Part shown: positions 7,211-55,258 of the stretch, piece after piece
Numbering within the stretch: position 1 is the stretch's first letter
Layout: each line of letters opens with the position of its first letter
From: Candidatus Omnitrophota bacterium
GTDB lineage: Bacteria > Omnitrophota > Omnitrophia > Omnitrophales > Aquincolibacteriaceae
NCBI GenBank assembly: GCA_903884815.1
Contig: CAISGE010000015.1
Span: forward strand, 22,958-86,957
Direction of reading: 5' to 3'
DNA length: 64,000 nt
The notes under the pieces: generated by a model
Database searches by the model: none
The model's input: only the letters and a program-made list of their open reading frames with translations
What the model was told of the DNA's origin: nothing
Program-made: the position numbers and the translations under genes

Positions 7211-8355
7211 CGGTCCGTCTCCCCGAGCACAATGTCAATGCTCCCCAGGATGATGATGGCATCGGCGATCTTTTGGCCGAGGCACATCTCTTCCAAAACG
7301 GTCAGGTTGATGAGGGACGGGGCGCGCACGTGATAGCGCCAGGGTTGCGGCGTGCCGTCGCTGACGACATAAAACCCGAGCTCGCCTTTGGGGGATTCCA
7401 CGCGGCCATAGGCCTCGCCCACCGGCGGCTTGAAATTGCGCGGCATTTTGATGAAAGGGACTGTCTTTTTGTTCAGGATCTCGCCCTGAGGGATCTTGGC
7501 CAGGGCCTGTTCAAGGATCTTCAGACTTTCGCGAATCTCGAGGATGCGGACATAATACCGGTCGTAGACATCGCCCTTTTTCCCGAGCGGGATCTTGAAA
7601 TCAAAACGGTGGTAAATGCTGTAGCCGTCCACTTTGCGAATGTCGTAATTGACGCCGGAGGCGCGAAGCACCGGGCCCGTGATGCCGGCATTGGTCGCGG
7701 TTTCGGGGGAAAGCACGCCGACATTCTGGCAGCGCATGCAGAGGATCTCATTTTTCGAGAGTAGGGTCTCGAATTCTTCGAGGAAGGCCGGGAATTTCGC
7801 GACGATCTGATGGATCGTCGCGAGGTGGAGCGCCGTAAGATCGCGCTTCACGCCGCCGAAGCGGAAATAATTATTCATGAGGCGCGAGCCGGTGACCTCT
7901 TCAAAAAGGTCGAGGATCCTTTCCCGCTCGCGGAATGCATAAAGAAGCGGCGTGAAAAAAGCGCCGAGGTCATTCAACATAAACCCGATCACGGTGATGT
8001 GGTTCACGATACGGGCGAGTTCCGCCATGATGACGCGGAGATATTCCGCCCGTTCCGGGACTTCGAGGCTGGCGAGCTTTTCGACCGTGAGCGCGTAGCC
8101 AAAGTTATTGGCTAGGGCGTTCACGTAATCCAGCCGGTCCGTATAGGGCATGATCGCCGCATAGGGGAGATTCTCCGCGATCTGTTCGTGATTGCGGTGA
8201 AGGTACCCGAAGATCGGCCTCAGGCCCCGGATCTTTTCGCCCTCGGTCTGCACGATCATGCGGAACACGCCGTGGGTAGACGGATGCTGTGGCCCGAAAT
8301 TGATCTCGAGGATATCCGAGCCGTCTAATTTTTTTGTTTCGATGATATTTGGCAT
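7207..8355 (-). CDS. nuoD: NADH-quinone oxidoreductase subunit D (49 kDa)
   Basis: [18 protein letters not shown]-terminal signature, 382 aa. Directly adjacent to nuoI/nuoH with no nuoEFG in between. Confidence 0.9.
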
Positions 8356-8386
8356 AATTTATCTAAGAAATTAACGCTTCCTTGGG

Positions 8387-8462
8387 CACAACGCGCAACG
8401 GTCAACGTTCAACGTCAGGACTCAAATTAAGTACGTTGTGCGTTGCGCGTAGTGCGTTGTGC
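8387..8462. repeat. heptamer-periodic palindromic element (HPE) copy 1, intra-operon nuoC|nuoD
   Basis: Left arm CACAACG CGCAACG GTCAACG TTCAACG, a loop, then right arm CGTTGTG CGTTGCG CGTAGTG CGTTGTGC. Confidence 0.75.
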
Positions 8463-9049
8463 TAGTTTCTTGGTTTTTCCGGCTTTCCAACCAAAGCCCG
8501 TTTTCCTGCAGCGGCGAGTTCTGCCGCTTTTGCCTTCATGTCCTCCGGGATCGCGATCCCCCTGGAGGCTAGCCATGTGATGTCCGCAGCTTCCAGGACG
8601 TCCACATCCTCCTGCTGATAATCTTTGCGCAAAGGGTAGCCTTCGAATCCTTCCCACATGAACAGGCGGCGTGGGTCGGGATGACCTTTATAAATGATGC
8701 CGAAGGTGTCAAAGGCTTCGCGTTCCTGGAGGTTCGCGCTACGGTAAATTGGTACAAGCGACGGGATCTCCGGGTGATTCTTGGGAACGCGGACGCGCAG
8801 CGTGAGGGGCCCACGCTTCAGGGCCATTGAATAAAGGTGATAAACCGATTCCAGAGAGTCCAGATAATCCGCGCCGGTCACCGAGGAAAGATAGTCCAGC
8901 CGGAATTTCGGACTTTGCTTCAGGAAAAGGGCGACGCGCGGCAGATCCTTCGGGTTCTCGAGCAGAAGGGAATTCAGGACGCGGCGGAGTTTCACGTCCG
9001 GCAGTCCCGCATGGAGTTCTTTTTGAACTTCTTCCATAAAGAGAGGCAT
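8462..9049 (-). CDS. nuoC: NADH-quinone oxidoreductase subunit C (30 kDa)
   Basis: FDTFGIIYKGHPDPRRLFMWEGFEGYPLRKDY motif. Start trimmed to internal ATG (MPLFMEEV), 1 nt after the nuoB stop. The track start at 9097 would overlap nuoB by 46 nt. Confidence 0.85.
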   Translation of the reverse strand: MPLFMEEVQKELHAGLPDVKLRRVLNSLLLENPKDLPRVALFLKQSPKFRLDYLSSVTGADYLDSLESVYHLYSMALKRGPLTLRVRVPKNHPEIPSLVPIYRSANLQEREAFDTFGIIYKGHPDPRRLFMWEGFEGYPLRKDYQQEDVDVLEAADITWLASRGIAIPEDMKAKAAELAAAGKRALVGKPEKPRN

Positions 9050-9050
9050 G

Positions 9051-9779
9051 TTAGACGGCTCCCGGAGCGGCGGGCTTGACGGCGGCCGCATGTTCAAGGT
9101 CCGGGGCTTTCAGTTTCTTCCCGATGAGTATCGTGGCACCGTAATGCTCCCGGCGTGGGTCCTTCTTTGCAGGCTGCCACACCTCGGGATTGAATTTCGG
9201 AACGAGCCCATGAGGTCCAAGCTCAGGGATCGGAAATTCCCGCTTGAGGCCCTTTTGATACCATTCTGCTTTCAGAATCTCCTGGGATGCGATCTTTTTT
9301 TGAAGTTCCATGAGTCCGTGAAGCAGCGCCTCGGGCCGCGGGGGACACCCGGGCAAATGAACGTCGACGGGGATGTAGCGGTCGATCCCGCGAAGGACAT
9401 TGTAACCGTCAATAAAAGGACCGCCGGAAATCGCGCAGGCGCCCATGGTAAGAACATATTTTGGTTCGGGCATCTGATTGAAGAGGCGGACGACCTGAGG
9501 AGCCATCTTTTTGGTGACGGTTCCGGAAATGATCATGAGGTCGGCCTGGCGGGGTGAGGCACGGAAGAGCTCGGCGCCGAAGCGGGCAATATCGTAACGG
9601 GCGCAGGCCGCCGCGATCATCTCGAACGCACAGCAGGCCAGCCCGAACTGCATGGGCCATACGGACGATCGGCGTCCCCAATTGTAGAGGAAATCGAGCG
9701 ACGTCCAGATCACGCCTTTTGAGGCGAGTTCGGCGCGCAGCGTTTCATCGACTTCGGTCTTATTTTCTGTGAAGGCCAT
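9051..9779 (-). CDS. nuoB: NADH-quinone oxidoreductase subunit B (20 kDa, Fe-S) with ~70-aa C-terminal extension
   Basis: [12 protein letters not shown]...[10 protein letters not shown]...LPGCPPRPE cysteine motifs. 242 aa versus about 170 typical. Confidence 0.9.
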
Positions 9780-9861: not shown

Positions 9862-10233
9862 TTAATCCCACTCGAGCATTTTCTTTTTCCAGGCGTAGAT
9901 CAGGCCGAACGCGAGGATGGCTATAAAAAGGGCCATTTCCACGAAAGCAAAGAGCCCCAGGCGTTTGAAGGCCACGGCCCAGGGATAGATAAAGATTGTT
10001 TCAATGTCAAAAATGACGAAGATCAGGGCGTAAAGGTAATACTGGACGTGATACTGCATCCAGGGATCACCTTTGGAGGCCAGACCGCACTCATAAGTCG
10101 CCTGTTTGTCGGACGAGGGCTTCTTTGGGGCCATAAGCCAGGCCAATGCCAGAGGCGCAACGGCGAAGATCAGGGCAAAAATGAAAAAAAGGCCCACAAA
10201 TAGGTACTGATAGGAATAGGAGGCACTCGACAT
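9862..10233 (-). CDS. nuoA: NADH-quinone oxidoreductase subunit A
   Basis: 123 aa, 3-TM protein. YECGL...YLYALIFVIFDIE motif. First gene of the operon. Confidence 0.85.
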   Translation of the reverse strand: MSSASYSYQYLFVGLFFIFALIFAVAPLALAWLMAPKKPSSDKQATYECGLASKGDPWMQYHVQYYLYALIFVIFDIETIFIYPWAVAFKRLGLFAFVEMALFIAILAFGLIYAWKKKMLEWD

Positions 10234-10293
10234 AGGGCGGGATTATAGGCAAATCCAGGTCGGGTGTCCAGCAAAGAGGCGGTGCCTGGCCAA

Positions 10294-10404
10294 GCGGGAA
10301 ACGTGGAACCGGGAACGTTGAACGTTTAAAAGGACGGAAAAGGGGACTGTCCCCGTTTTACTTTGTTGATTTGTTTTCCGTTTGTCGTTACCCGTTCCCC
10401 GGTT
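10294..10404. repeat. HPE copy 3 with an embedded terminator-like central hairpin
   Basis: GCGGGAAACG TGGAACC GGGAACG TTGAACG, then AAAAGGGGAC-TGT-CCCCGTTTT, then CCGTTTGTCGTTACCCGTTCCCCGGTT. Confidence 0.7.
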
Positions 10405-10409
10405 TTAAT

Positions 10410-10919
10410 TTAAATTGTGCAGCCTTTCGAGGAGGTTATATCGCCAGGGTTGGCGGGTTCTATCGGTTTGAAGACCATTTGGCATTGCCAATTTATATCA
10501 ACGGAACCATCAAATCCGCCGGAATCATAGCTAACATAATCCCCGGTGTGATCGTTTCTTCCCTCGACCTGGAAGGTAGAGCCAGACACGCTCGCATAGT
10601 ACCGGTACTTCCAATTTTTTGATTTATCAATGCCCGTGAGCCCAAGATCCTGCCAACTCGACTCGTTTTTGTCAAAACCCTCGTCCCAAGGATCCGAACA
10701 AACCTCGAAGACATCTCCCGGGAGTATGTAAGTTCCTTGGAAGTCGTAGTATCTTTCTGCGGCGCGTTTAATGGCGCCGACCATTTGAAGGGCTTCGGCG
10801 GCTTTGGCTTTTTCAGTCTGCATGAGCATGCGGGGTACGATGAGTGACGCCAAAATGGCAATAATGACGACCACGATCAATACTTCAACGAGCGTAAAAC
10901 CTCTCTTCGGATTTTTCAC
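10410..10919 (-). CDS. type IV pilin-like protein (prepilin-type N-terminal cleavage/methylation domain), paralog 1
   Basis: Leader VKNPKRG then FTLVEVLIVVVIIAILASLIVPRM. GTG start with an AGGAG RBS 7 nt upstream. C-terminus ends KGCTI like paralog 6. Confidence 0.75.
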   Translation of the reverse strand: MKNPKRGFTLVEVLIVVVIIAILASLIVPRMLMQTEKAKAAEALQMVGAIKRAAERYYDFQGTYILPGDVFEVCSDPWDEGFDKNESSWQDLGLTGIDKSKNWKYRYYASVSGSTFQVEGRNDHTGDYVSYDSGGFDGSVDINWQCQMVFKPIEPANPGDITSSKGCTI

Positions 10920-11012
10920 AAGATTTCTCCTGAGGAATGACGCGAAACCCCTGTCTGGTGATTCGTCATCCACCTGCTAAAACTGTAGCACGAATTCAGA
11001 AAGGGGGGAGAC

Positions 11013-11091
11013 GGGCGGGAAACGTGGAAGGGTGAACGTTGAACGATTGAAAGAAGCGGGTGATGCCTCCGTTAACCGTTCCCCTTTTTTT
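11013..11091. repeat. HPE copy 4 in the divergent region between pilin paralog 1 and the GT-C-like gene
   Basis: GGGCGGGAAACG TGGAAGG GTGAACG TTGAACG ... CCGTTAACCGTTCCCC T7. Confidence 0.7.
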
Positions 11092-11169
11092 ATAAAAGTA
11101 TTCCCCCCGCGGAAGCTCTTGAGTACAATACCCGCGATTTTCTTTTTCTTAAGGTCACGAAAGGCTCTT

Positions 11170-12726
11170 GTGAAAACCCGACATTTGTTTTTATCTTTAA
11201 TGGCTGCTCTGGTTTACGCCTTCGGTCTCACCCCGACTCTCGACCCGGACATGGGGTGGCATTTGGGGACCGGGGAGTGGATTCTCCAACACGGGTTTCC
11301 GAGGACGGATCCTTTTTCCTTCACCGTGGCCGGCCATTTTTGGACTGCTCACGAATGGCTTTCCGAGGTGATCATGCGTCGCCTGTATGGTTTGGGGGGA
11401 TATCCGGCGATGATGATCTCTTTCGCTCTTGTGGGTGTGCTGGTCTTTGGCCTTGTCTACTGGACCTGTCCCCGGAGGCCGTACATTGCCGGGGCCCTTG
11501 CTTTTTTCGCCCTTCTGACGTCCCGTTTTCTCTGGGGTGCCCGCCCGCAGATCTTCAATGTCCTGATGATGGCCGCCTTTCTTCTGCTGATCCAGGGCGT
11601 GAGAATGCGTCGTTTCCACTGGAAGTTCCTCTACACGCTTCCTTTGCTCGTCATGATCTGGGTAAACCTTCACAGCGGGTACCTGCTTGGGCTTGTGGTG
11701 ATGGTCGCTTTTTTGACGGGAGACCTCTTCCAGATCTTTGTACTCCATTCAGAAGAAGGGACCTTGGGAGAAAAAGGTTTGGCGCATTTTTCGGGAATTT
11801 TAATTTTGTGTCTGGCCGCAGTGGGGATGAACCCTACGGGCTATAAGATCCTTCTCTATCCTTTCGAGACCCTTTCCAGCAAGATCATGCAAACGACCAT
11901 TTTGGAGTGGCAGTCGCCGATCTTTCAGCATTGGAACTACTGGCCTTTTCTCGGCGTGATGTCGCTTGGGGCAGCCGCATTTTTACTTTTTCCGCCCAAA
12001 CGCAATATCGCCAATTTTCTGATCTACGCGGGATCCATGGCTATGGGGCTTTTCGCCCGCAGGCACATCCCTTTTTTCGCGGTCGCTGCGATCCCGATGA
12101 TCGCGCTGGCCGTGAGCGAGGGGTTTCCCGTTCCTGCCTGGGTGAACCGGGGGAGTGATGTTGCTCTGACGCAGACCGCAAGAACGTTCCGCTATCTTTT
12201 GAACGTGTTTTTTGCGATGGTCATTTTGGTGGGTGTCTTTTCCTGGACGGGGTATCGCTTGAATCATAATCCATCCGCGATGGAAAAATCATTTCCGGTC
12301 AAGGCGTTCCAATTTATCAAGGGCAATGGGGCTATTGCCCGGCTCAGGATCTATAATGAGTACGTCTGGGGTGGGTACCTGATCTGGAACGGTTTCCCGG
12401 TTTTCATGGATGGGCGCGCGGACCTTTACGGGGGTAAATTCTTTTTCGATTACCTTTTCGCGCATGATCTGCGGGGAGGGGCGGTAGGCATTACGCGCTA
12501 TCTCGACAGCTATGGTGTCGACGGGATCCTCGTTCCTCCGGGAGGAATTTTGGGGAATGCTTTTCTCTCGAATCCGGAATGGCGGCTTGCCTACCGGGAT
12601 TCCACCGCCGTTTTATTTCTTCGCAAGGTGCCTTTTTCCGTACCTCCCGTGACCCAGAGTCCGGAGCGTTTCTATTCGCCGCTGAAAAGTAATAATCTTG
12701 AGGGGCCGAGGCGCCCTCATTCATGA
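11170..12726 (+). CDS. polytopic membrane protein, GT-C-like (unknown function), paralog A
   Basis: GTG start chosen to align with paralog B (24 aa before the DPDMGWHL loop). Many TM helices. C-terminal soluble domain with NEYVWGGYLIWNGFPVFMDGR. Confidence 0.55.
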   Translation: MKTRHLFLSLMAALVYAFGLTPTLDPDMGWHLGTGEWILQHGFPRTDPFSFTVAGHFWTAHEWLSEVIMRRLYGLGGYPAMMISFALVGVLVFGLVYWTCPRRPYIAGALAFFALLTSRFLWGARPQIFNVLMMAAFLLLIQGVRMRRFHWKFLYTLPLLVMIWVNLHSGYLLGLVVMVAFLTGDLFQIFVLHSEEGTLGEKGLAHFSGILILCLAAVGMNPTGYKILLYPFETLSSKIMQTTILEWQSPIFQHWNYWPFLGVMSLGAAAFLLFPPKRNIANFLIYAGSMAMGLFARRHIPFFAVAAIPMIALAVSEGFPVPAWVNRGSDVALTQTARTFRYLLNVFFAMVILVGVFSWTGYRLNHNPSAMEKSFPVKAFQFIKGNGAIARLRIYNEYVWGGYLIWNGFPVFMDGRADLYGGKFFFDYLFAHDLRGGAVGITRYLDSYGVDGILVPPGGILGNAFLSNPEWRLAYRDSTAVLFLRKVPFSVPPVTQSPERFYSPLKSNNLEGPRRPHS

Positions 12727-12741
12727 GATCCCATTAAATCT

Positions 12742-14241
12742 ATGACGAAGCGATCGATCTTATTCCTGTTTTTCGTGACGGTTCTCTTCTGCCTGGGGTT
12801 GGTGGAGACGGTGGATTCGGACCTTTGGTGGCATTTGAAGGTGGGTGAATCCGTTTTTACCCACGGGATCCCTCGCGTGGATATTTTTTCATTTACGGCG
12901 GTGGGGCAGCGTTTCATTGATCAGGAGTGGTTGTCTGAAGTGCTCCTTTATTTGATGAACGCCTGGGCCGGAATGCCGGGGCTGATGATCTCTTTCGCGT
13001 TTCTTTCGGTGATCACGTTTGGATGCGTCTATTTCACACGGGCCGGTCTCCCGCTAGTGGGGATCCCGATGACGATCCTCGCGTGTTATTCCTCCAAATT
13101 TCTATGGCAAGCCCGGCCGCAGATCTTCAATATTCTCATGCTCGCCGCGTTGCTCTGGCTCCTTCAAGGCGTTCGGGACCGGAAAAGATCCTGGAGATGG
13201 CTTTACGTGCTTCCGGTCTTGTCGCTTTTTTGGGTCAATATGCACAGCGGGAACTTGATGGGGATCGTGGTGATGGCTCTGGTGCTTGCCTGCGATGCTT
13301 TCCAGGGGGGAGTGCTTCATTCGCGGGCTGAAGGTATCCTCCGGGGCGTCGAAATCAAACATTTTGCCGTCGTTTTTTCTCTCTCCGTGCTGGCATCTCT
13401 TTGCAATCCGGTGGGGTATAAGATCTTCGTTTTTCCTCTTCAGACCCTAAGCACTAAAGAGATACAGTCTTTTATCATGGAATGGCAGTCCCATGATTTT
13501 CACAATCCGTTCGCGTGGGGATTCCTGGTGATGCTCGTGGCCGGTGCGATGAGCCTCATGTTATTTCCGAAGAGGTTGGACCTGGCCACCGCGTTTCTGT
13601 ATGCCGGCTCCATGGCCGGAGCGCTCATGTCGCGCCGTCATTCGCCTTTCTTTTCCGTGGTTGCGACTCCCGTGATGATCCAGATGATCTCAAGCGGGAT
13701 CACTTCCGCCCGGTGGCGGGCATTTCTCTCTCTTGAATTCAGTTGGAATTTCCCAAGAGGGGTGCGCTATGGGGTCTTTTCGCTTCTCGCGGGTTTGATC
13801 TTCGTCGGTTCCTTTGTCTGGAGCCAGCACAAGATCGCGGGATATCATCGCTCGATCTCGCAGTATTTTCCCGTGAAGGCGGTGGAGTTGCTCAAGGGGA
13901 GAGGGTACTCCCCAAAAAGGGTCCTCAACGAATATGCCTGGGGCGGGTATTTGATCTGGAACGGTTTTCCTGTTTTTATTGACGGGCGCACGGAGGTCTA
14001 TGGCGCGCAATTTTTCAAGGATTATTTGGACACGATGGGTTCAAGGGAGTTCTCACCCAAGGTTCGGGGACAGTTGGACCGTTGGGGGATTGAGTATTGC
14101 CTTCTCAATGCACGAAGCCCGCTGCGCAATGCCTTGAAAATGACCGGCGAGTGGCAGGAAGTGTATCAAGATGGCTTGTCCAGCATCGTGATCCGAAAAC
14201 CTCTTCCGCCGGGTTCTGCGGTCAAGCCGGAGGGAAAATGA
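12742..14241 (+). CDS. polytopic membrane protein, GT-C-like (unknown function), paralog B
   Basis: Clear paralog of the preceding gene. Shared blocks: DSDLWWHL, QEWLSEV, FLWQARPQIFN, HSGNLMG, NEYAWGGYLIWNGFPVFIDGR. Confidence 0.55.
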   Translation: MTKRSILFLFFVTVLFCLGLVETVDSDLWWHLKVGESVFTHGIPRVDIFSFTAVGQRFIDQEWLSEVLLYLMNAWAGMPGLMISFAFLSVITFGCVYFTRAGLPLVGIPMTILACYSSKFLWQARPQIFNILMLAALLWLLQGVRDRKRSWRWLYVLPVLSLFWVNMHSGNLMGIVVMALVLACDAFQGGVLHSRAEGILRGVEIKHFAVVFSLSVLASLCNPVGYKIFVFPLQTLSTKEIQSFIMEWQSHDFHNPFAWGFLVMLVAGAMSLMLFPKRLDLATAFLYAGSMAGALMSRRHSPFFSVVATPVMIQMISSGITSARWRAFLSLEFSWNFPRGVRYGVFSLLAGLIFVGSFVWSQHKIAGYHRSISQYFPVKAVELLKGRGYSPKRVLNEYAWGGYLIWNGFPVFIDGRTEVYGAQFFKDYLDTMGSREFSPKVRGQLDRWGIEYCLLNARSPLRNALKMTGEWQEVYQDGLSSIVIRKPLPPGSAVKPEGK

Positions 14242-14660
14242 GGGTGGTCGAAGTCGGTTGTGCGATCATTCACAAGAACGGACGGATTTTGATCGCGCAG
14301 AGACATTTACAGGATAGTTTCGGAGGCCTCTGGGAATTCCCGGGAGGCAAGCGGGAAGAGGGCGAAACGATCGAGGCGTGTTTGTCCCGTGAAGCCCAGG
14401 AGGAATTGGGCGTGGGAGTTTATCCCGAGCGCTTGCTGTGCCGGAGAGAGCATGGGAATGAGGACCGCAGGATCTCGCTCTTCTTTTTTTTCTGTAAATG
14501 GGAGAACGGGGCGCCACGGGCGATCGATTGCAAGGATTTCCGCTGGGTGGGTCCGGAGGAGATCCGAAGTTATACTTTCCTTCCCGGGGATCTGGAAGTC
14601 GTGGAGGATCTGATCCTTCACTGGGAAGAGTATTTCAAAACGGCGGAAATGGGCCGATAA
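14238..14660 (+). CDS. NUDIX hydrolase (MutT-like)
   Basis: Nudix box GGKREEGETIEACLSREAQEELGV. ATG overlaps the upstream stop (ATGA). Confidence 0.8.
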   Translation: MRVVEVGCAIIHKNGRILIAQRHLQDSFGGLWEFPGGKREEGETIEACLSREAQEELGVGVYPERLLCRREHGNEDRRISLFFFFCKWENGAPRAIDCKDFRWVGPEEIRSYTFLPGDLEVVEDLILHWEEYFKTAEMGR

Positions 14661-14743
14661 TAGGGAAGTCTCTTGCGCTGAGGGACTGGAGATCTGAAAA
14701 GAAACGCGTTCGATATCAAGTGAAAACTGAGTCCCGGAGAAAA

Positions 14744-16591
14744 ATGCCGCTAAGCAAAATGGTGAAAGATCCAAAAAGTTCAGGGGTGTCGCTCAGGAGG
14801 CACGCCTGGCGCCTGCCGCTTCGCTACAAACTAGCGCTTCCGACGCTTGTGCTGATGCTCGGGGTTGTTATCTTTGTTCTTTTTACCACCTTCTCTGTTT
14901 TTCATGAGATGACGGTGAAATACAAGGAGGCGCGTCTCCAGGCGGTCGCCGAGATCTTCGCGGAGACCCTCAAGATTCCGATGGCCGTGGAGGACCAGTC
15001 CTCTCTCCGGGCTTATATCCAGCTGTTGGCCGAGCAGACCGGGGCCGACGAGGTTTGCCTCCGGCGTGCGGACGGAGAGAAGATCAGCGCCGGCCGTTCC
15101 GGGACAACCCACTTCTCCGACATCTCTTACGCTCAGGATTTCTTCGGAGTCAAAAAAGTCGGAGAAGGCGTTTACGCATCGGTGGTCCCCATTCTGAGTG
15201 AGAAAGAGATCCTCGGGCAGCTCATCATTGTTTTTTCGCGAGGCGATTTCGAACGGGAGCTCCGGGAACTTTTTATCGAGAAATTCTTCATCTCTTTCCT
15301 TTTGGTGACGCTGGTGGCGTTCGCCATCGCTGGCTTTACCTGGCTGGCGATGAAACCGCTCACGGCCCTTCAAAAAACGGCACGTAATATTTTGGCCGGG
15401 GATCTTGAGGCGCGCGCCGATATCCATTCCGCGGATGAGATTCAGGAGCTCGGCGAGGCGTTCAATAAAGTGGTCAGCCGCCTTGTGCAAAGCTTTGAAC
15501 ATTTGCGGGCGCGCACGCAGGCCCTTGAGGAATCCGAGGAGAAATACCGTTCGATCGTCAATAACGTGAGCGATATCATTTTTTCGATCACTCCGGAAGG
15601 TGAGCTTTTGATCTTGAATCGCGGGTTCTCCGGGTATTCGCGCGAAGAGATCCTCGCAGAAGGCCTCCCCCTCTTTTTTTCCATGCATGCCCCTGGCGAG
15701 GCGCAGAAATTCCAGGACGCCCTCGAGACGATCATGCGGACCAAGAAACCCGTGGAGCATTTGAGCACCCAGCAGTTCCACCGACTTCACCACGCCGAGA
15801 TCTATTACCAGACCAATCTCACGCCGGTCGTGGATTATGAAGGGAGCCTGCGCTTGATCCAGGGCGTCATGCGCGACGTCACGGACCTGCGGCATGTGGA
15901 AATGATGAAAGAAACCCTGGTCCGCGATGTGGCCCATGAGCTCAAAACCCCCACCGCGAAATTTATCATGACGCTTCCGTGGCTTGAAAAGCAAATGGAA
16001 AACAATTCCGAAAAAGAGAAATTCATGCCGATCATCAAAATGCTCAGCGAGAACGCCGACCGTCTTATGAGGACCATTTCAAGCATCATGGACCTGTCCA
16101 AAGTCGAGTCCGGCATGTCGGATATCCGAAAGCAGGAGATCGATCTCAACGAAGTGTTACGGCTTGTGGTCGATGATATGAGGCCTTTGATCGAACAGCA
16201 TCATCTGAAGCTCGAGACCCGGTTGAGTTCCGGGCCGCTGAAGATGCTCGGTGATCCGGATATGCTTTACCGGGTTTTTGTCAATCTGATCACGAATGCC
16301 GCGAAGTTCACCCCGGACGGGAGCATCACCGTGACGTCCTCGCTCCGCGGAAATGATCTTTGCGCGGAAGTGACGGATACGGGGATCGGGATTGAACCGG
16401 AGAACCTGCAAAAGATCTTCGAAGCGTTTTTCCAAAAAACGCCTTCGACCCTGGGCATAGGGGTCGGGCTGACGATCTCCAAGGAGATCGTGGCGTTGCA
16501 TGAAGGGGAGATCTGGGCCGAAAGCGGCGGTGCGGGCCAGGGGAGTATTTTCAGGGTTATTTTTCCCTCGTATCCGATGTCCGGCAAATAA
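14744..16591 (+). CDS. sensor histidine kinase (TM, HAMP, PAS, HisKA, HATPase)
   Basis: H-box VAHELKTP. HATPase N/G boxes (ITNAAKFT, DTGIGIEPE, GLGVGL). N-terminal TM segment. Start trimmed to ATG after a GGAG RBS. Confidence 0.85.
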   Translation: MPLSKMVKDPKSSGVSLRRHAWRLPLRYKLALPTLVLMLGVVIFVLFTTFSVFHEMTVKYKEARLQAVAEIFAETLKIPMAVEDQSSLRAYIQLLAEQTGADEVCLRRADGEKISAGRSGTTHFSDISYAQDFFGVKKVGEGVYASVVPILSEKEILGQLIIVFSRGDFERELRELFIEKFFISFLLVTLVAFAIAGFTWLAMKPLTALQKTARNILAGDLEARADIHSADEIQELGEAFNKVVSRLVQSFEHLRARTQALEESEEKYRSIVNNVSDIIFSITPEGELLILNRGFSGYSREEILAEGLPLFFSMHAPGEAQKFQDALETIMRTKKPVEHLSTQQFHRLHHAEIYYQTNLTPVVDYEGSLRLIQGVMRDVTDLRHVEMMKETLVRDVAHELKTPTAKFIMTLPWLEKQMENNSEKEKFMPIIKMLSENADRLMRTISSIMDLSKVESGMSDIRKQEIDLNEVLRLVVDDMRPLIEQHHLKLETRLSSGPLKMLGDPDMLYRVFVNLITNAAKFTPDGSITVTSSLRGNDLCAEVTDTGIGIEPENLQKIFEAFFQKTPSTLGIGVGLTISKEIVALHEGEIWAESGGAGQGSIFRVIFPSYPMSGK

Positions 16592-16622
16592 CGAGGATTG
16601 TCTTTTTTATAGGGGAGGCAGC

Positions 16623-16988
16623 ATGAGCAAGAAAATTTTAATCGTCGAGGATGACAGTGATTTTCAGGATATCTATTCTCTCTTTCTCCGGGGGGAGTCC
16701 TATCAGGTGCTGACGGCAGGTAACGGTCAGGAGGGTCTGGAGGCCCTTGAAAAGGAAACGCCCGATCTGATCATCCTGGACCTTATTATGCCCGTGATGG
16801 ATGGAGAAACCTTTTATGTACGCCTCCGCGAACAGTCCAAGTGGAAATCCATCCCGGTTCTTATCGCCAGCGTGAATGACAAGATGCCTGCCCGCATTAC
16901 AGAACTTGGCGGCATTGCCGGCAATCTCAGGAAGCCTTTCCATATCGATACCCTGCTTGGCAAGATCCATGAGTGTTTGAAAGTGTAG
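16623..16988 (+). CDS. response regulator, stand-alone receiver domain
   Basis: MSKKILIVEDD...DLIILDLIMPVMDG receiver motifs. 121 aa with no output domain. Confidence 0.8.
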   Translation: MSKKILIVEDDSDFQDIYSLFLRGESYQVLTAGNGQEGLEALEKETPDLIILDLIMPVMDGETFYVRLREQSKWKSIPVLIASVNDKMPARITELGGIAGNLRKPFHIDTLLGKIHECLKV

Positions 16989-16995
16989 GGCGAGA

Positions 16996-17066
16996 GGCGT
17001 ACGGAGTACGGCACTACGGCTCACGGGATTTTCGCCGTACACCTTACACCGCACTCCTTACGCGGA
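16996..17066. repeat. HPE variant (GGCGTACG GAGTACG GCACTACG GCTCACG ... CGCCGTACACCTTACACCGCACTCCTTACGCG)
   Basis: Read directly after the response-regulator stop. Confidence 0.65.
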
Positions 17067-17164
17067 TAGACAAATCCCGCGCCCTCGGTTATCATGACTT
17101 CGTGTTTTAATTGTGCGCCTTCCGGAGAGTTCCTTGTCCTATCCCAACTTTGCATTTTAAAAGA

Positions 17165-17391
17165 TAAGGGGTAGTTGGGACGGTCCTGATTTATATTTTA
17201 TTTTTCATAATGGTAATCAGGACAGCCCCAATCACAGCTTCACCTTGATTGATTGGAATTGGGACTGCCCCAATTCCAATTTCGTTAAAATTGATAGGTA
17301 TTGGGACTATCCTTGTCTTTGATTTGTTTCTGGAGGGTGACAAGGATTGCCCCAATTTCCGCTTTGCGGAAATTAATAGGAATTGGGACTA
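17165..17391 (+). promoter_or_regulatory. array of at least 6 ATTGGGAC / GCCCCAAT half-sites forming 3-4 inverted-repeat operators plus other hairpins, upstream of the tandem AsnC-like gene
   Basis: Includes TTGGAATTGGGAC-T-GCCCCAATTCCAA, ATTGGGACTATCCTTGTC...GACAAGGATTGCCCCAAT, ATTTCCGC-TTT-GCGGAAAT, and GGAATTGGGACTATGG at the start codon. Confidence 0.5.
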
Positions 17392-18485
17392 TGGATGAGA
17401 AAGATCGTCTTTTATTGACCCATCTTCAGAGCGGGCTCCCGCTAACGCCCCGGCCTTTTGCCACTTGGGCGGCGAAGCTCGGGACAGACAGCGCCGACCT
17501 GCTGGTGCGCATTCAGCGCCTTAAAAAAGAAGGGACTTTGGGGGGGGTGAAGGCGGTTCTCGACGCGCGCATCTTCCATTACCAAAGCGCTTGGGTTGCG
17601 CTACGGTTTGGCACAGAAGATCTCGCGAGCCGCACAGAAGTCCTTTGGCAGCATCCGGGGGTGACCTACGGCTGCGAGAGGGAGCACGAGTTCAACGTCT
17701 GGCTCTTTATTTCGGCTCCCGAGAATCATGATCTTGAGCTTCATGTCCGTTGCCTTGCAAAGATCTCCGGTGCGGAGAAAGTTCTGTTCCTGCCCGTGCG
17801 GCGTGTGTACAAAGGAACGGATCTTCTCAGTTCTCTGGGCCCCGAAACATTTTCTGAGATGGACGAGCGCTTCGAAAAACGTCAGCCGGGTCATGGGGCG
17901 GAGTTGACGACCGAGGACATCGATATGATACGGCGGCTTCAAGAGCCGTTTCCGCTCACGGATGAACCTTATCAAAAGATCGCTGCGGATCTCGGGATCA
18001 CGGAGTTTCAGGCGATTGAGCAGATGAAGTCTCTTGTCGCGAAAAAATGTCTCAAGAGGATTGGAAGTTTCTTGAAACCTGTTGGGCGGATCGGACAGGA
18101 GCATCAAGCTCCTGCCGAAGCCGTGCTGAAGGATTGGCCTTCAGTGAAAGTCCCGGGAGCCGGGAACCTGGTGGTCTGGCAGATCCCCGAGGAAAAACTG
18201 GAGCGAAGCGGGCCCGAGATCGCCGCATTCCGCGAGGTGATTTACGCGGACCGTCGGCCGGCCTATCCGGAATTCCCGTACTCGCTTTATACGACGATCC
18301 GGGCTGAAACACCCGAGGCCCTTGAATTGATCACAAGACGCATGCAGGACCGGATCGGGAAATGGCCGCACCGGGTGATGGTGACGACCCGGGAGCTTAA
18401 GAAAACCGGGATGAAATACTTTCCGAAAGAATTGGACGCGTGGTGGCAGCAAAACCGGCATATAAATGAGACCGCATTTAACTGA
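17392..18485 (+). CDS. tandem AsnC/Lrp-type HTH domain protein (NirDL/AhbAB-like two-repeat architecture)
   Basis: Two repeats with the D..D..LL..LQ..PL...PF...A..LG pattern: DEKDRLLLTHLQSGLPLTPRPFATWAAKLG, then EDIDMIRRLQEPFPLTDEPYQKIAADLG. Confidence 0.55.
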
Positions 18486-23725: not shown

Positions 23726-24070
23726 TTAAAGGCCGCATACCGATACGTCCAAACTTATTGTCTTTTCTATGCCGGTAAGCCCAAGATCGGCCCAACTAGC
23801 CTCATTAGAGTCTTGAGAATCATCCGTGGGATGCGAAACAATTATTGTTGCTCCATCTTGAAGTATATTGGGAAGCAGATAGGTTCCATGGAAGTCGTAG
23901 TATCTTTCCGCTGCGCGCTTCATGGCGCCCACCATTTGAAATGCTTCGGCGGCTTTGGCTTTTTCGGTTTGCATCAGCATGCGCGGCACGATAAGCGATG
24001 CCAGGATAGCGATGATCACGACCACGATCAATACCTCGACAAGCGTGAATCCTCTTTGCCTGTTTTTCAT
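23726..24070 (-). CDS. type IV pilin-like protein, paralog 2 (C-terminally truncated, probably frameshifted)
   Basis: MKNRQRG then FTLVEVLIVVVIIAILASLIVPRM. Only 114 aa versus 166-187 for the paralogs. A +2-frame ORF (23598..23795) continues downstream. Confidence 0.6.
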   Translation of the reverse strand: MKNRQRGFTLVEVLIVVVIIAILASLIVPRMLMQTEKAKAAEAFQMVGAMKRAAERYYDFHGTYLLPNILQDGATIIVSHPTDDSQDSNEASWADLGLTGIEKTISLDVSVCGL

Positions 24071-36094: not shown

Positions 36095-36592
36095 TTAATC
36101 AACCCGGCAGGGATTTGAAGCATTGTCGGTTGCAAGAAGCCCTAAACAAGAATAGGAGGGGGCATTAGAACCGACAACACTCAAAGACATGTAAGCATAC
36201 GTTAAAGGGTCGCTGCTCGGATATGACATGAATACGAGGGTATAGGCGGTCGACGTAGAAGTGAGAGAATAGTAAAAATCTCTCGATTGTTGCATGTCAC
36301 TGTTAGAGATTCCGGCGGGCTGGAAGTCACCGGAGATTTGACCAGCACTGTTCGAACTATAACTTATGAACGGCGGAAAATACCACGCGCTGGCGGTCGG
36401 AAACTGGCCTGTTCTGTCATATTTACCGTCCAGGGTTCGTCTCATGAGGCCGATCATTTGGAAGGCGGCCCCGATTTTGGCCCTTCCAATTTGGCTGGTC
36501 ATGCGCGGCACGATCACCACGGCGAGAGTGGTAATGATGACGAGCACGATCAATATCTCCACCAGAGTGAAACCCTTTTTCATGTCTCTCAT
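36095..36592 (-). CDS. type IV pilin-like protein, paralog 3
   Basis: MRDMKKG then FTLVEILIVLVIITTLAVVIVPRM. Track start 36610 is a TTG artefact; the ATG follows a GGGAGAG RBS. Confidence 0.75.
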   Translation of the reverse strand: MRDMKKGFTLVEILIVLVIITTLAVVIVPRMTSQIGRAKIGAAFQMIGLMRRTLDGKYDRTGQFPTASAWYFPPFISYSSNSAGQISGDFQPAGISNSDMQQSRDFYYSLTSTSTAYTLVFMSYPSSDPLTYAYMSLSVVGSNAPSYSCLGLLATDNASNPCRVD

Positions 36593-36761
36593 GTCTCTCT
36601 CCCTTTTCAAAAGAAGTCTCTCGGCCCGCTCAAATCATCGCCGTGGTCCCACTAGAACTGTAACACATATCCGCGGAATTGGGGGCGGCGACTGTCCTTA
36701 AATCAAGACGGGGAATCGGCGCTTTAATGTTCCAATACCCACGATTTGAAGCACGGCTTGA

Positions 36762-37005: not shown

Positions 37006-37518
37006 TTAGCTGAGGTCGCATGGATTTGCAGAGCTCGAGTAAGTAACAAGCCCGCTACACATATAGGTGGTAACGATATTGCCGCTCGAAAAAACCGACC
37101 CGGCGCCCACGGAAGCATACGTTGAAGGGTCGTATGAGCCCGCGGTGGAGAAGGAGATCGAACTGCTTGAGGTGGTAGACGAAAAATTAAAGTTAAAATT
37201 TTTGATTTGCTGAACGTCGTAGTTCGACACCCCCAGGACTAGAAAGTTGCCCGAGCTGGAGCTGGCATGATCAATCCCGCCCGAATCCGTGTATGCCGGA
37301 AACCAAGTCGCGGCGCCGGAAGGTGGATAGTACCCATGCGTGCTGGCATAGTTTGCAAGGTTGCGTCTCATGATCCCGAATAGCTGCATGGGTTGCGCGA
37401 GTTTGGCCCTTGCGATTTGGCTGGTCATGTGCGGTACGATCATCGCTGCGAGAGTGGAAATGATGACGATCACGATCAATACCTCCACCAGAGTGAAACC
37501 CTTTTTCATGTCTCTCAT
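37006..37518 (-). CDS. type IV pilin-like protein, paralog 4
   Basis: MRDMKKG then FTLVEVLIVIVIISTLAAMIVPHM. Ser/Thr-rich C-terminal half. Confidence 0.75.
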   Translation of the reverse strand: MRDMKKGFTLVEVLIVIVIISTLAAMIVPHMTSQIARAKLAQPMQLFGIMRRNLANYASTHGYYPPSGAATWFPAYTDSGGIDHASSSSGNFLVLGVSNYDVQQIKNFNFNFSSTTSSSSISFSTAGSYDPSTYASVGAGSVFSSGNIVTTYMCSGLVTYSSSANPCDLS

Positions 37519-37689
37519 GTCTTTCTCCCTTTTCAAAAAAGGCTTTCCGCCTTCTCAAATCATCGTCGTGCTCCCATTAAAACTGTAACACATATCCGCG
37601 GAATTGGGGGCGTCGGCTCTCCTTAAATTAAGACGGAGGATCGGCGCTTTGATGCCCCCATTCCTATCAGCCGAAGCATTGCTTGATCG

Positions 37690-37812: not shown

Positions 37813-38334
37813 TTAGATAATCTCGCAGCGAGAAGAATCATTTTTGGCGTAAGTAAAAAGCCCGCTACACATAGCGGAAGTGTTCATGCTACTGGTAATG
37901 GGGTTAAACCAAGTTGAGACGCCCATGTAAGCGTATGCTGGATCACCCCACGGGGCTACGGAATAGAAGGAGAGCCAGCTGGATGTGGAGGAACTGGAAA
38001 AAGAAAAGTTAAAATCGTTGATTTTCTGCATGTCGTTGTTGGAAACCCCCAGGACTAGAAAGTTGCCCGAGCTGGAGCTGCCATGATAAGTCCCGCCCGA
38101 ATCCGTGTACGCCGCAGAATAAGACGCGGAGCCGGAAGTCGGATAGTACCCATGCGCCGTGTAATAGGTTTCAAGGTTGCGTTTCATGATGCCGAATAGC
38201 TGTGTGGGTTCCGCGAGTTTGGCCTTTGCGATTTGGCCGGTCATGCGCGGCACGATCGCTGCGGCGAGAATGGCAATGATGACGAGCACGACCAATACCT
38301 CCACAAGCGTGAAACCCTTCTTCATGTTTTTCAT
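37813..38334 (-). CDS. type IV pilin-like protein, paralog 5
   Basis: MKNMKKG then FTLVEVLVVLVIIAILAAAIVPRM. Track start 38667 is an over-extension; ATG at 38334 follows a GGAG RBS. Confidence 0.75.
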   Translation of the reverse strand: MKNMKKGFTLVEVLVVLVIIAILAAAIVPRMTGQIAKAKLAEPTQLFGIMKRNLETYYTAHGYYPTSGSASYSAAYTDSGGTYHGSSSSGNFLVLGVSNNDMQKINDFNFSFSSSSTSSWLSFYSVAPWGDPAYAYMGVSTWFNPITSSMNTSAMCSGLFTYAKNDSSRCEII

Positions 38335-41533: not shown

Positions 41534-42007
41534 TTAAATCGTGCAGCCTTTTGTGGACATGTTAGGATCGCTGTCGGGCTCAACGGCTTTGAATACTTCA
41601 AAGCAAATCCAGATCCCGGAGCCGTTGGCATCCACGTAAGCTAGCCAATTGGTAGCGGTCTCGTCGTACGCTTGGACTGAGAGGTAGCTATGAAAACCAT
41701 AGTACACATATTTCCACGCTTTTGATTTCTCAATACCCGTAAGCCCCAGATCCGCCCAATCGCCCAGAGGAGTCCCCCAAGGGTCCGACTGAATATAAGT
41801 TCCGCTGGGAGCGTCATAACTTCCGTGAAAGTCGTAGTATCTTTCCGCGGCGCGCTTGATGGCGCCGATCATCTGGATAGCCTCGGCGGCTTTTGCTTTT
41901 TCGGTCTGCATGAGCATGCGCGGGACGATAAGCGAGGCGAGGATGGCGATAATAACGACCACGATCAGAACCTCAACGAGGGTGAAGCCCTTTTTTTGAT
42001 TTTTCAC
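41534..42007 (-). CDS. type IV pilin-like protein, paralog 6
   Basis: VKNQKKG then FTLVEVLIVVVIIAILASLIVPRM. GTG start after an AGGAG RBS. Ends KGCTI. Confidence 0.75.
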   Translation of the reverse strand: MKNQKKGFTLVEVLIVVVIIAILASLIVPRMLMQTEKAKAAEAIQMIGAIKRAAERYYDFHGSYDAPSGTYIQSDPWGTPLGDWADLGLTGIEKSKAWKYVYYGFHSYLSVQAYDETATNWLAYVDANGSGIWICFEVFKAVEPDSDPNMSTKGCTI

Positions 42008-47348: not shown

Positions 47349-47546
47349 ATGGAACAGAAAATTATGAAAAACAGAAAAACGCAGATCGAAGCAAGCAATG
47401 GAAGCTACAACCCGGAAATGTTTCCTTGCCGCTCAGGGGACGCCGCGAAAAAATATCTGACGAACTCATCTCTTAGCTGGAGCCCCGCAAACGCATCCGC
47501 CGTTTCGGGGCAATTCAAATTCTCAAAGGGGGCTCGAAAAAAATGA
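47349..47546 (+). CDS. small basic ORF (65 aa) translationally coupled (ATGA) to the giant gene; may not be real
   Basis: MEQKIMKNRKTQIEASNGSYNPEMF... Stop overlaps the start of the 1394-aa gene. AT-rich codon usage. Confidence 0.25.
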   Translation: MEQKIMKNRKTQIEASNGSYNPEMFPCRSGDAAKKYLTNSSLSWSPANASAVSGQFKFSKGARKK

Positions 47547-50500
47547 AGACCATCCAGGCAAATAAAGTCATCGCGATCACGGTCGCGCTCAGTCTGGCAT
47601 TTTTCCAGATCGTCCCTGCCGGACTTGCCGCGGGGAAGACTAATCCCAGCGATTTGACTGCCCAGACGGGTGTGTCCGGTTCCGTTGATCCACTGGCCAA
47701 AACACAGGTGACGACACCGGCCGTGATTCCCGCCAATTTTTTGATGCACACAGGAGGGATTACTAAGGCGACCCCAACGACGATCCCGACGGCTGCCACC
47801 GTTGCCACGAATCTGTCGAGCAGGATCCCGGCTACGATCCGGGATTATGTCACGAAAGTTCAGGCCTTAGGATTCAAGGTAGAGGTAAGCGCGATCGCTA
47901 AAACTCAACCTCCGCAATATATCGTCAAGATGACTGATACGAAAAACTATGCCGTCACGCCGGTGGGGAACGTGAAAAGCGCCAGCATCACTCTGTTTGC
48001 CGACAGCACAGGGACTCTGCAGGTCCTTACGGAAAAGATCACCGTGACTTGCTACAGCGCCAAAGGCGGAGACACCCAGGTGAATGGCGAGCTTCTCTAT
48101 GAGGGCCTCCGGCAAATATCGGCCCAGCCCGCGTTCACCATGCTTCAGGTCAAAGTATCCAATAGCACAACCTCGGGCATGATGGTGACTTACCAGGGCT
48201 ATCAATACACGATCCAGCAGAGCAAGGACAAAAAGGTCACGACGGTCACTCCGATGATGCCCCTCGCCGTGACGAATCATATTACCTCGCTTCAGAATGC
48301 TGCGACCGGTTATACCGTGACCGCGGCTTACATCCCGGGGACTCATCCGCCGCAGTACCAGGTCGATGTCTCGGATAACAAGGCGTACTATGTTGCCCCG
48401 GTAGGGCCACTTTATGCGATGAGCTATATCCTCAGAGGCGACGGAATCGTGGACTCGAAATCCGTTTCGGCTGCGTATTACGGAATCCAGGATGACGCGA
48501 AAGTCGTCGGCCCGCTGCTTTACGAGGCGATGGGCGTCTGCCCCGAGGGACAGATATGCAAGATGGTGGCGACGAGTCCGATCGACCTTCTGAAGACACT
48601 GACGACGATCAGCGTTACAAAGGTCGAGACAAGCCCGATCTACACGGTCCATTTCACAACCACAGACGGAAAGTATTACAAGACCTACCGCGACGCGGCC
48701 GGGAAAGTGATCGTGATTGATGAAGTGGAGGCTTTACGCGCCCAGATTATGGCAAGCACCACGGCGGAGATCGTAAAGGTCATGGCCGAGCTCGCGGATC
48801 ATGAGGCAAAGCTTGCGCTTCAGCTTGCGGAATGGGAAAAGAATGTCACCCAACTGAAAGCGGATCTTGCGGCGGGGCGGGGGAACGCGGACGCAATCAG
48901 CGGGGCGGTCACGAGCTATCTGGATCAGGCAGGCGTCAGCGATGCTCTGAAAAATGAGATTCAGGGATATCTGACAAGGAGCGGAAGCTTGCTTGACGGG
49001 CTTAATGCCGCTGAAGAACAGTACGCGGCCTTTTTGAAGACGGGGGCCCGGACGACCGGGCTCGCGATAGACAACGCGAAGGCCTATCTTGCGGCTCTCC
49101 AGAATCACGAGGGGAAGGTCTCGGCCGCAAAAACAACCGAGGAATTAGCGTTGCTGACAGACCTGCCCGCCCGGAGGGCGCGGATGCCCAAAACAGTGAT
49201 GCCTCCTCCGGTGGAGGACCCGCGACTTGCTCTGAATGCGCTCGTCGAGGAAGGGAAGCTGTTAAAAGAAAAGCTGGAGGCCCTTCCGCCTCTCGCGGTC
49301 CGGGTGTTTTCGGCCCAGCTGAATACACTGCTGAACCCGGCCGGTGCAAAGAGCTTCAATATCACGGAACCGGCATTGCAGGCTGACGGGACTTATCTCG
49401 TAACCGTCAGCGACGACATTTCTCACTTGATCACGCCAACAAGTGGTTTTGAGAAAATGAGTTTCAACGTTGACGTGACGGGCAAGCTCATCCCCGCTTC
49501 GCTCGATGCTTCCTATTACGGCATCAAGCAAGTGGTCGACGGACAGCTGCTTTATGAAGGGATGAAGCTTATGGAAGAAACAGGAACCCCGGAGGGTGCG
49601 GAGGTCCGTGTCCTGGCCCGGATGGCGGCAGTCAGTGTCATCGCGGTGGTTGGTGACGCGATCTCTTTTTCTCTGACTGGAAAATATTACAAAATTTTCC
49701 GAGATGCGAATGAGCAGGTGAAGCTTGAAGCGGTGCAGACTCCGGTTACCCCGAAAATCTCTGATCAGCCCACTGGAAATCCAGAGCCGCCTCCCGCTCC
49801 GCCCGAGAGTAGTGTGGATGTTGCCACGATGCCTTTTGGGGACGGGGCAGTGGCGATCGTCAAGATCACCGATTTCCCAAGCAACAATGTTTCTTATTTC
49901 GCGAAGATCAGGGACACGAATGGCGTGGTGATCAAACAATATCAGATCGATCGCGGGGACTATACGCCTTCCGTCAGTAATTCTTCTTACGGAACTTATT
50001 ACACCTTGGCATTCAAAACCGTGGATGGAACCAGGGTCACGGTCCAACAGCTCTCAACAAGCACACCGAGCAGCACCATCGATGAAATGACCGTCGTCAA
50101 TTTCACAGGGATCGGGGATGTGTACGTCACGCAAAGTTATTCGCTCTCCCCTCAAGGACAGTGGGTCGAAACCTCTTACTCCCCAAGTTATTTTAAGACA
50201 GAAAGTGTCTGGAGTTCCAGATATAGCAGTTTGGTAAGCGTGCAATCGACTTACGTCATGGGGCCCAACGGTCTCGTCGTGAGGAACAAGAGCATCTATC
50301 CTTATTCCTATCCGGGCGGTGTTTTCACGTATCCGTTTATTCAGGAGATTACCTATGTGAATGGAGTCGCAGCCCGCGCCTCTATTTACGGATCGAATGC
50401 AACTTCGCCGGCCAATTACCTTTATTTCGACGGGTCGAAGGTCTCCGTGACCCTGGCAAGCGGTGCGCGGCAAGACTATCTCCTGAGTTCGCCGTCCATA

Positions 50501-55145: not shown

Positions 55146-55258
55146 GAAAGTCCGTTTCCCTATGTTGAGAGATTCGAATTTTATCATGAGGCAAAGATCC
55201 GCGGGGGAAAACAATTTTTTCAGAATAAACCTCTCGATGGGGTAGAATCCATGGGCGC

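Follow-up and report, generated by a model that had tools for sequence, protein, structure and literature searches.

Tandem membrane proteins from a large unannotated family are probable periplasmic GT-C glycosyltransferases in a relative of Candidatus Omnitrophota

On a 64 kb stretch of bacterial DNA (here called the window, to which all coordinates refer unless a locus is named), for which Candidatus Omnitrophota (P0006) is the nearest named relative, two adjacent plus-strand genes encode polytopic membrane proteins that we call MP1 (11170-12726, 518 aa from a GTG start) and MP2 (12742-14241, 499 aa). What do these proteins do, and on what do they act? A preliminary description of the locus had read them as paralogous GT-C-like transferases, coupled to a NUDIX hydrolase that might cleave a nucleotide-sugar or a lipid-linked pyrophosphate, and had raised the possibility that they glycosylate the product of a divergently oriented pilin gene. 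Our analysis indicates that MP1 and MP2 are quite likely to be periplasm-facing glycosyltransferases of the GT-C_A type, which would use a polyprenyl-(pyro)phosphate carrier as the source of the sugar or glycan that they transfer, with one of two aspartates, D25 or D27, as the catalytic residue (residues of the family are numbered as in MP2).

The two proteins are indeed tandem paralogs, since they align from end to end with 41% identity and 59% positives (E = 3e-125), and the blocks DxD..WHL, (H/Q)EWLSEV, FLWxARPQIFN, HSGxLxG and NEYxWGGYLIWNGFPVFxDGR occur in both. In an alignment of 69 family members that are 27-72% identical, both window paralogs included, 25 columns are invariant and are kept in full by MP1 and by MP2. 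These comprise, among others, D25, D27, H31, D47, P126, Q127, W164, N166, H168, W248 and R299, together with the blocks W400-G401-G402-Y403 and D414-G415-R416; further conserved polar positions on the periplasmic face, R125, E247, R298 and H300, are likewise given as invariant. The acidic first loop is a feature of the family as a whole, with a mean of 6.9 Asp/Glu against 2.8 Lys/Arg residues and with D25, D27 and D47 present throughout.

Searches of Pfam and NCBIfam returned nothing meaningful for either protein (Pfam E ≤ 0.1), and a Pfam scan of 69 diverse members at E ≤ 1 gave scattered chance matches with no recurrent family. Against the sequences of the PDB, a single-sequence query found nothing, the 69-sequence profile yielded only spurious matches to Huntingtin (E ≥ 0.2), and a profile of the C-terminal domain yielded only chance matches that contain WGG (E > 1). 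Relatives are abundant: 940 were found among the candidates scored in a database search, all of them labelled "hypothetical" and none with a Pfam domain, and a profile search of 1.84 billion cluster representatives (clusters at 50% identity) recovered 40,714 at E ≤ 1e-3 and 16,080 at E ≤ 1e-30. MP1 and MP2 therefore belong to a very large family that is without annotation in the databases, and a literature search found no paper describing it.

The family alignment was used to build an AlphaFold2 model, which has a mean predicted local distance difference test score (pLDDT) of 94.2 and a predicted template modelling score (pTM) of 0.92. In the model, about 11 transmembrane (TM) helices, starting from a cytoplasmic N-terminus, are followed by a C-terminal alpha/beta domain that spans about 110 residues (approximately residues 376-486). 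Foldseek returned 25 matches at E ≤ 1e-3, and every one of the 25 is a GT-C protein. The top match is STT3 (E = 6e-9, TM-score 0.61), followed by DPY19, AglB, ALG12, PglB, AftD, AftA and ArnT, and structure comparison shows the C-terminal domain to be folded like the core globular domain of AglB/STT3. Comparison of folds had been set in advance as the test that could overturn a transferase reading, through confident homology to a transporter; transporters and other non-transferase folds were encountered only among Foldseek matches at E > 0.2, with probability ≤ 0.10. The GT-C-like layout that had been proposed, with its acidic first loop and C-terminal soluble domain, is thus borne out, the significant matches of both fold searches being GT-C without exception.

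The model also allows the proteins to be placed within the GT-C enzymes. The hallmarks of GT-C_A are a module of TM1-7 with two juxtamembrane helices between TM1 and TM2, and, where juxtamembrane helix 1 (JM1) has its tip, a conserved Asp that is essential for catalysis (PMC12041299). Such an N-terminal module, with TM1-7 and two juxtamembrane helices, is present in the predicted model, in which D25 and D27 lie directly N-terminal to a helix formed by residues 28-41, after TM1, a location that matches that of the GT-C_A Asp. Loop charges are those of an N-in topology, the cytoplasmic loops being short and rich in Lys/Arg and the first loop acidic, and this positive-inside pattern predicts that the first loop, the C-terminal domain and all conserved polar residues are periplasmic. 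N166 and H168 sit at the periplasmic end of a TM helix, and I245-x-E247-W248 lies in the loop of residues 220-255; these are candidate counterparts of the second acidic motif (DxD/ExD type) and the TIXE/SVSE motif of oligosaccharyltransferases (OSTs). On this predicted structure, the assignment of MP1 and MP2 to the GT-C fold is solid, and we file the family as unclassified GT-C_A, with OST catalytic subunits as its nearest structural neighbours, and not as OSTs. GT-C enzymes as a kind are well known; this family of them is absent from Pfam, NCBIfam and the PDB. Paralogy, fold class, conserved residues, topology signal and, as set out below, neighbourhood statistics are supported directly by the data.

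For catalysis, donor type and the roles of individual residues, we infer the following scheme. The donor would be a sugar or glycan on polyprenyl-(pyro)phosphate that has already been flipped to the periplasm, its phosphate likely held by the R298/R299/H300 cluster; one aspartate of the first loop (D25 or D27) would act as catalytic base or nucleophile; the AglB-like C-terminal domain may help to hold the acceptor; and the sugar would be passed to an acceptor in the periplasm, either a protein or an envelope glycoconjugate. Because both copies keep every invariant residue, the difference between MP1 and MP2 most likely lies in their specificity for acceptor or linkage, or else the two form a heterodimer. 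Two points weigh against this scheme. The GT-C assignment rests on predicted structure, because neither Pfam, NCBIfam nor the PDB holds a sequence relative of the family; and genes for a polyprenyl-phosphate sugar synthase, a flippase or sugar-nucleotide synthesis are absent from the 64 kb window. Genes of the GT2 family with best matches among polyprenyl-phosphate sugar synthases, which are indirect evidence of a lipid-linked donor, do occur near relatives in other genomes (9 of the 78 loci described below), but not in the window.

MP1 and MP2 open a run of five plus-strand genes. An ORF listing contained all of the ORFs named in the preliminary description, at the same coordinates. MP1 and MP2 are separated by 15 nt and are followed by a MutT-like NUDIX hydrolase gene (14238-14660, 140 aa, PF00293 E = 3e-20), whose start overlaps the stop of MP2 as ATGA at 14238-14241 behind a GGAGGG Shine-Dalgarno sequence, as had been described for the ATGA; then, after 83 nt, by a sensor histidine kinase gene (14744-16591, 615 aa, with Pfam HAMP, PAS, HisKA and HATPase_c domains) and, after a further 31 nt, by the gene of a stand-alone receiver, a REC-only response regulator (16623-16988, 121 aa, PF00072 E = 2e-21). 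The Pfam domains of these last two confirm the kinase and receiver that had been described downstream of the NUDIX gene, and about 400 nt separate the receiver from the next called gene. On the other side, an intergenic region of 250 nt (10920-11169) lies between MP1 and the divergent type IV pilin-like gene (10410-10919, minus strand, 169 aa, N_methyl E = 3e-9). This region presumably holds divergent promoters; a promoter scan reported no promoter-like sites in it, the counts of promoter-like and terminator-like sites across 10200-17500 were not above shuffled expectation, and Rfam and tRNA searches of the window, this region included, gave zero matches. Most gene callers start MP1 at ATG 11200 (508 aa) and thereby lose most of TM1, while one caller in public data gives 518 aa. 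The true start is most likely GTG 11170, because only the longer form has a TM1 that aligns with the N-terminus of MP2.

How far this gene order extends was examined in six distinct relatives of the same Omnitrophota-like clade (L004/L005, L092, L093/L136, L094, L116 and L121). As far as the contigs extend, all six have a minus-strand nuoA gene, then the family in one or two copies, then NUDIX, kinase and receiver, an order conserved in this clade only. This common order, together with the named relative P0006, is the basis for placing the window in Omnitrophota. It breaks 3' of the receiver, where a NirD-like regulator and ThiC are encoded in the window but archease and RtcB in one relative; because of this break, the genes from GT-C to receiver appear to act as a block. 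Across the clade, NuoD is 76-81% identical, the kinase 63-74%, the receiver 68-70% and the GT-C proteins 40-56%, and since these genomes are not very distant from one another, the conserved order is only moderate evidence of a functional link. The kinase is thus more conserved than the adjacent GT-C proteins, close to the level of Nuo, which is unusually high for a histidine kinase. L092 carries two GT-C copies that are 72-73% identical to MP1 and MP2, and in a neighbour-joining tree MP1 and MP2 pair respectively with these two. Single-copy orthologs are 43-56% identical to MP1 against 40-46% to MP2. From the pairing in the tree and the closeness of the single-copy orthologs to MP1, the duplication is old and MP2 is the more diverged copy. 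In L116, a pair of overlapping ORFs (7995-9167 and 8971-9477) stands in place of an intact family gene (L116:7995-9477), the result of a frameshift or pseudogene formation or of an assembly error.

Outside the clade, the family is represented by 573 relatives in GTDB species representatives, mainly in Chloroflexota (Anaerolineae and relatives) and Acidobacteriota, and also in Binatia, Dormibacterota, Acidimicrobiales and Gaiellaceae. We clustered the neighbours lying within 5 kb over 78 non-redundant loci and annotated the cluster representatives. Among these neighbours were RcpC (27 of 78 loci), secretin (23), TadA (20), TadZ (18) and prepilin peptidase (8), two GT87 clusters (24 and 12), FHA-SpoIIE (18), GT2 (9) and methyltransferase (7). 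The best matches of the neighbouring GT2 proteins are dolichyl-phosphate hexose transferase, ArnC, PpgS and AglJ, that is, proteins of the Dpm1/ArnC-like kind. Several polytopic proteins without a Pfam match also recur near the family, one type with weak matches to PMT_2. In Chloroflexota, the order is typically GT2, methyltransferase, one or two family genes, a PMT_2-like gene, a membrane protein, a regulator and a kinase. In six Chloroflexota loci (L006:9574-14275, L011, L014, L015, L012 and L013) we noted two polytopic proteins of 513-537 aa encoded 3' of the family, one with weak PMT_2 matches and the other with no Pfam or NCBIfam match, which may represent further unannotated GT-C-like families.

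In Terriglobia, the genes follow one another on one strand as GT87, GT87, a membrane protein of about 300 aa, the family gene, flp, rcpC, secretin, tadZ, tadA, tadB and tadC, with 110-210 nt between the end of the family gene and the one or two flp genes that follow. The membrane protein that precedes the family gene there (291-305 aa, without a Pfam match) has a GT87-like N-terminal motif, and its gene overlaps the family gene. This type of arrangement is seen at L007:7129-9813, at L036, L045, L050 and L075, and at about 25 more acidobacterial loci, with GT87 and FHA-SpoIIE upstream. Several lineages have duplicated the gene in tandem independently of one another, up to arrays of 4-5 paralogs on some contigs. 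Three such arrays on metagenome contigs (L145:7803-15520, L148:7719-15780 and L153:22-5943, with 4-5 tandem paralogs each) have as flanking genes a TMEM260-like/PMT_2-like GT-C gene and one for a sigma-54 response regulator of the NtrC type. Taken together, the context in other phyla is how a GT-C enzyme that builds or decorates glycans from lipid-linked sugars behaves.

What, then, is the acceptor? An envelope glycoconjugate is somewhat favoured over a protein or pilin, and we hold the first of these as a tentative possibility and the second as an unlikely one. Under the envelope alternative, MP1 and MP2 would remodel the cell surface in the manner of ArnT, decorating lipid A/lipopolysaccharide (LPS), a lipoglycan or a surface polysaccharide with sugars drawn from polyprenyl-phosphate donors, under the control of the adjacent kinase and receiver. 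The glycan-building islands found elsewhere (GT87, PMT_2-like, Dpm1/ArnC-like GT2 and methyltransferase genes) fit this view, as does the structural closeness of ArnT and AftA. Unrelated signalling genes recur beside the family as well: kinase and receiver in the window, a NarL-type regulator with a HisKA_3 kinase in Chloroflexota, and sigma-54 activators in Pyrinomonadaceae and beside the arrays of L145 and L148. This recurrence is a weak hint of regulated envelope modification, and GT-C, NUDIX, kinase and receiver are kept as a block while the downstream DNA differs. However, the 64 kb window is devoid of LPS, lipid A and polysaccharide genes; the receiver, which lacks an output domain, offers no evident means of controlling transcription of the GT-C genes; and the order is conserved only among genomes as close as the NuoD identities above indicate, where it could have survived in the absence of any functional link.

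The alternative of a protein acceptor supposes that MP1 and MP2 are OST-like protein glycosyltransferases whose substrates are type IV pilus (T4P)-like pilins here, Flp pilins in Acidobacteriota, or other secreted proteins. Its attraction is that the closest structural matches, STT3, DPY19, AglB and PglB, all act on peptides, and that the C-terminal domain has the AglB core fold. It also draws on linkage to tad genes, which stand beside the family on the same strand in 87% of a 30-member acidobacterial clade made up of Terriglobia and Pyrinomonadaceae; Tad components lie near the family in Chloroflexota too (L012, L013 and L085) and in L148, where we noted an RcpC gene about 5.7 kb upstream of the five-paralog array. 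Against protein acceptors, the WWDYG motif that binds the sequon in OSTs is absent, Flp tails (e.g. GSNANNVFSNVASSIQ) have no N-x-S/T sequon, and our literature search found no paper linking a glycosyltransferase to tad, nor any tad-linked GT-C enzyme or Flp glycosylation enzyme.

For the pilin in the window, MP1 is divergent from it, as had been described, but the functional link suggested for this organism does not stand. The pilin gene is missing from all five relatives with the same gene order (L004, L092, L093, L094 and L116), including L092 with its 72-73% identical proteins, and it has its own terminator-like hairpin on the 3' side (10354-10342), beyond which lies a promoter-like site for nuoA (10270-10242). 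At least six minus-strand genes in the window encode pilin-like proteins of the N_methyl type (10410-10919, 23726-24070, 36095-36610, 37006-37536, 37813-38334 and 41534-42007), and with so many, adjacency to one of them is uninformative, its probability by chance being roughly one in five. This density is unusually high, three of the six being clustered at 36-38 kb. An insertion that is recent and incidental, outside the conserved block, best accounts for the divergent pilin. The general idea of pilin glycosylation is kept alive by the tad adjacency in Acidobacteriota. A specific form of it, a minimal (about 490 aa) bacterial OST relative that glycosylates the subunits of type IV filaments, dedicated to Flp in Acidobacteriota and to T4P-like pilins in Omnitrophota, seems to us improbable; if true, it would amount to an unrecognised, phylum-spanning protein glycosylation system acting on a pilus type thought to be of archaeal derivation, AglB being the enzyme that glycosylates pilins in archaea. 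Of the leads from this analysis, the most interesting, an OST-like enzyme heading the tad operons of Acidobacteriota, lies outside this window.

We consider it very unlikely that the locus forms an integrated module in which the coupled NUDIX enzyme hydrolyses a nucleotide-sugar or lipid-linked pyrophosphate and so feeds or recycles the GT-C reaction. The ATGA overlap behind a good Shine-Dalgarno sequence speaks for such a module, as does the presence of a NUDIX gene after the GT-C gene in every relative of the clade (L004, L092, L093, L094, L116 and L121), but the overlap itself is not conserved, the two genes being about 25 nt apart in L004 and about 600 nt apart in L116. The Nudix box GGKREEGETIEACLSREAQEELGV is intact, and the best NCBIfam matches are PRK08999, NudG and MutT, all under cut-off (TIGR00586, MutT, scores 88.8 bits against 97.9), while among solved structures the closest are those of MutT proteins and of a CTP pyrophosphohydrolase (E = 1e-20 to 6e-17). 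A model of GDP-mannose mannosyl hydrolase matches at 20 bits, far under its cut-off of 146. The enzyme is of a soluble cytoplasmic type, and the GT-C active site would be periplasmic; furthermore, no NUDIX gene stands beside the family in about 75 loci of other phyla. Because the matches are to the nucleoside-triphosphate pyrophosphohydrolases MutT and NudG, and because NUDIX genes accompany the family in one clade only, the role first proposed for the enzyme is unsupported beyond adjacency; by homology, it is best described as MutT-like. In the sensor kinase, two TM segments flank a periplasmic sensor region without a Pfam match, and the receiver, which resembles a DVU0259/DivK-like model under cut-off, lacks an output domain. 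NUDIX, kinase and receiver form a conserved neighbourhood specific to this clade, which is probably one operon.

That MP1 and MP2 are no enzymes at all, and serve as a GT-C-fold scaffold (as PIG-U/GAB1 does in the glycosylphosphatidylinositol (GPI) transamidase) or as a transporter, we regard as scarcely credible, given invariant acidic residues at the canonical catalytic position, invariant basic and polar residues on the periplasmic face and the low probability of the Foldseek transporter matches.

A third GT-C-like protein had been noted further along the window (57138-58829, plus strand). It is a polytopic membrane protein, as described, but belongs to a separate family, PF10131 (PTPS_related; E = 4.9e-8, 32.3 bits against a cut-off of 26.4), which we take to be a member of the Pfam GT-C clan. 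Homology to the MP1/MP2 family was tried by profile comparison with hhalign and rejected (probability 1%). In the region preceding this gene we noted a protein of 1394 aa without a Pfam domain (47543-51727, plus strand), encoded beside an SGL_GH162 (beta-1,2-glucanase-like) gene (52416-55214, minus strand), which is followed by an ECF sigma/anti-sigma pair and then by the PF10131 gene.

For the window, the reading of MP1 and MP2 as glycosyltransferases would turn two hypothetical proteins into probable periplasmic enzymes, on the strength of the predicted fold, and the NUDIX and pilin connections proposed earlier should not be propagated. More widely, recognition of the GT-C fold is a starting point for understanding the function of genes that occur once or several times per genome in Chloroflexota, Acidobacteriota, Omnitrophota and other phyla that have received little study, and the conserved position directly upstream of flp and tad in Acidobacteriota offers a concrete hypothesis of pilus or envelope glycosylation for cultivable species.

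Among known systems, the closest comparison is with the GT66 enzymes STT3, AglB and PglB, which share with MP1 and MP2 a polytopic TM domain, an acidic first external loop and a C-terminal periplasmic domain whose globular core has the same fold. Unlike these, MP1 and MP2 lack PF02516, none of the 69 members matches STT3 at E ≤ 1 and no PDB match was found, and they have about 11 TM helices instead of 13; to our knowledge, a length of 499 aa is also shorter than that of the OST catalytic subunits characterised so far. A search for the OST motif WWDYG with the pattern WW[DE][YWFN]G gave no match among the ORFs above 400 aa of the window and of the fetched loci. Instead of WWDYG, the family has the invariant W-G-G-Y (W400-Y403) where the first helix of the domain starts, a place that we take to be equivalent, and no sequon-bearing acceptor or pgl/agl-type pathway lies near MP1 and MP2. 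The C-mannosyltransferase DPY19 (GT98) differs in being eukaryotic, with 13 TM helices and only 8-9% identity, and there is no evidence for MP1 and MP2 of its tryptophan C-mannosylation motif. ArnT (GT83), the undecaprenyl-phosphate-L-Ara4N:lipid A transferase, differs in sequence, as MP1 and MP2 match neither PMT_2 nor the ArnT Pfam family and fall outside GT83/GT39 as defined by Pfam PMT and PMT_2, and in context, as the window has no arn-type genes and the adjacent receiver has no DNA-binding domain.

In Pseudomonas aeruginosa, TfpW is a GT-C pilin arabinosyltransferase that is encoded beside the pilin it glycosylates. This enzyme sets a precedent for the pilin-glycosylation idea and for the flp-adjacent members in Acidobacteriota, with the difference that relatives of this window do not keep the pilin beside the family. 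From the GtrC-type/GT136 three-component systems, MP1 and MP2 differ in being unrelated in sequence and in having no synthase or flippase with them in the window, but relatives of the family resemble those systems in pairing a lipid-phosphate sugar synthase with an extracytoplasmic GT-C protein (PMC11127046). GT136 was itself founded on a GT-C enzyme without sequence similarity to existing families (PMC11127046), and by that precedent the MP1/MP2 family is a candidate new CAZy family, once an activity is shown.

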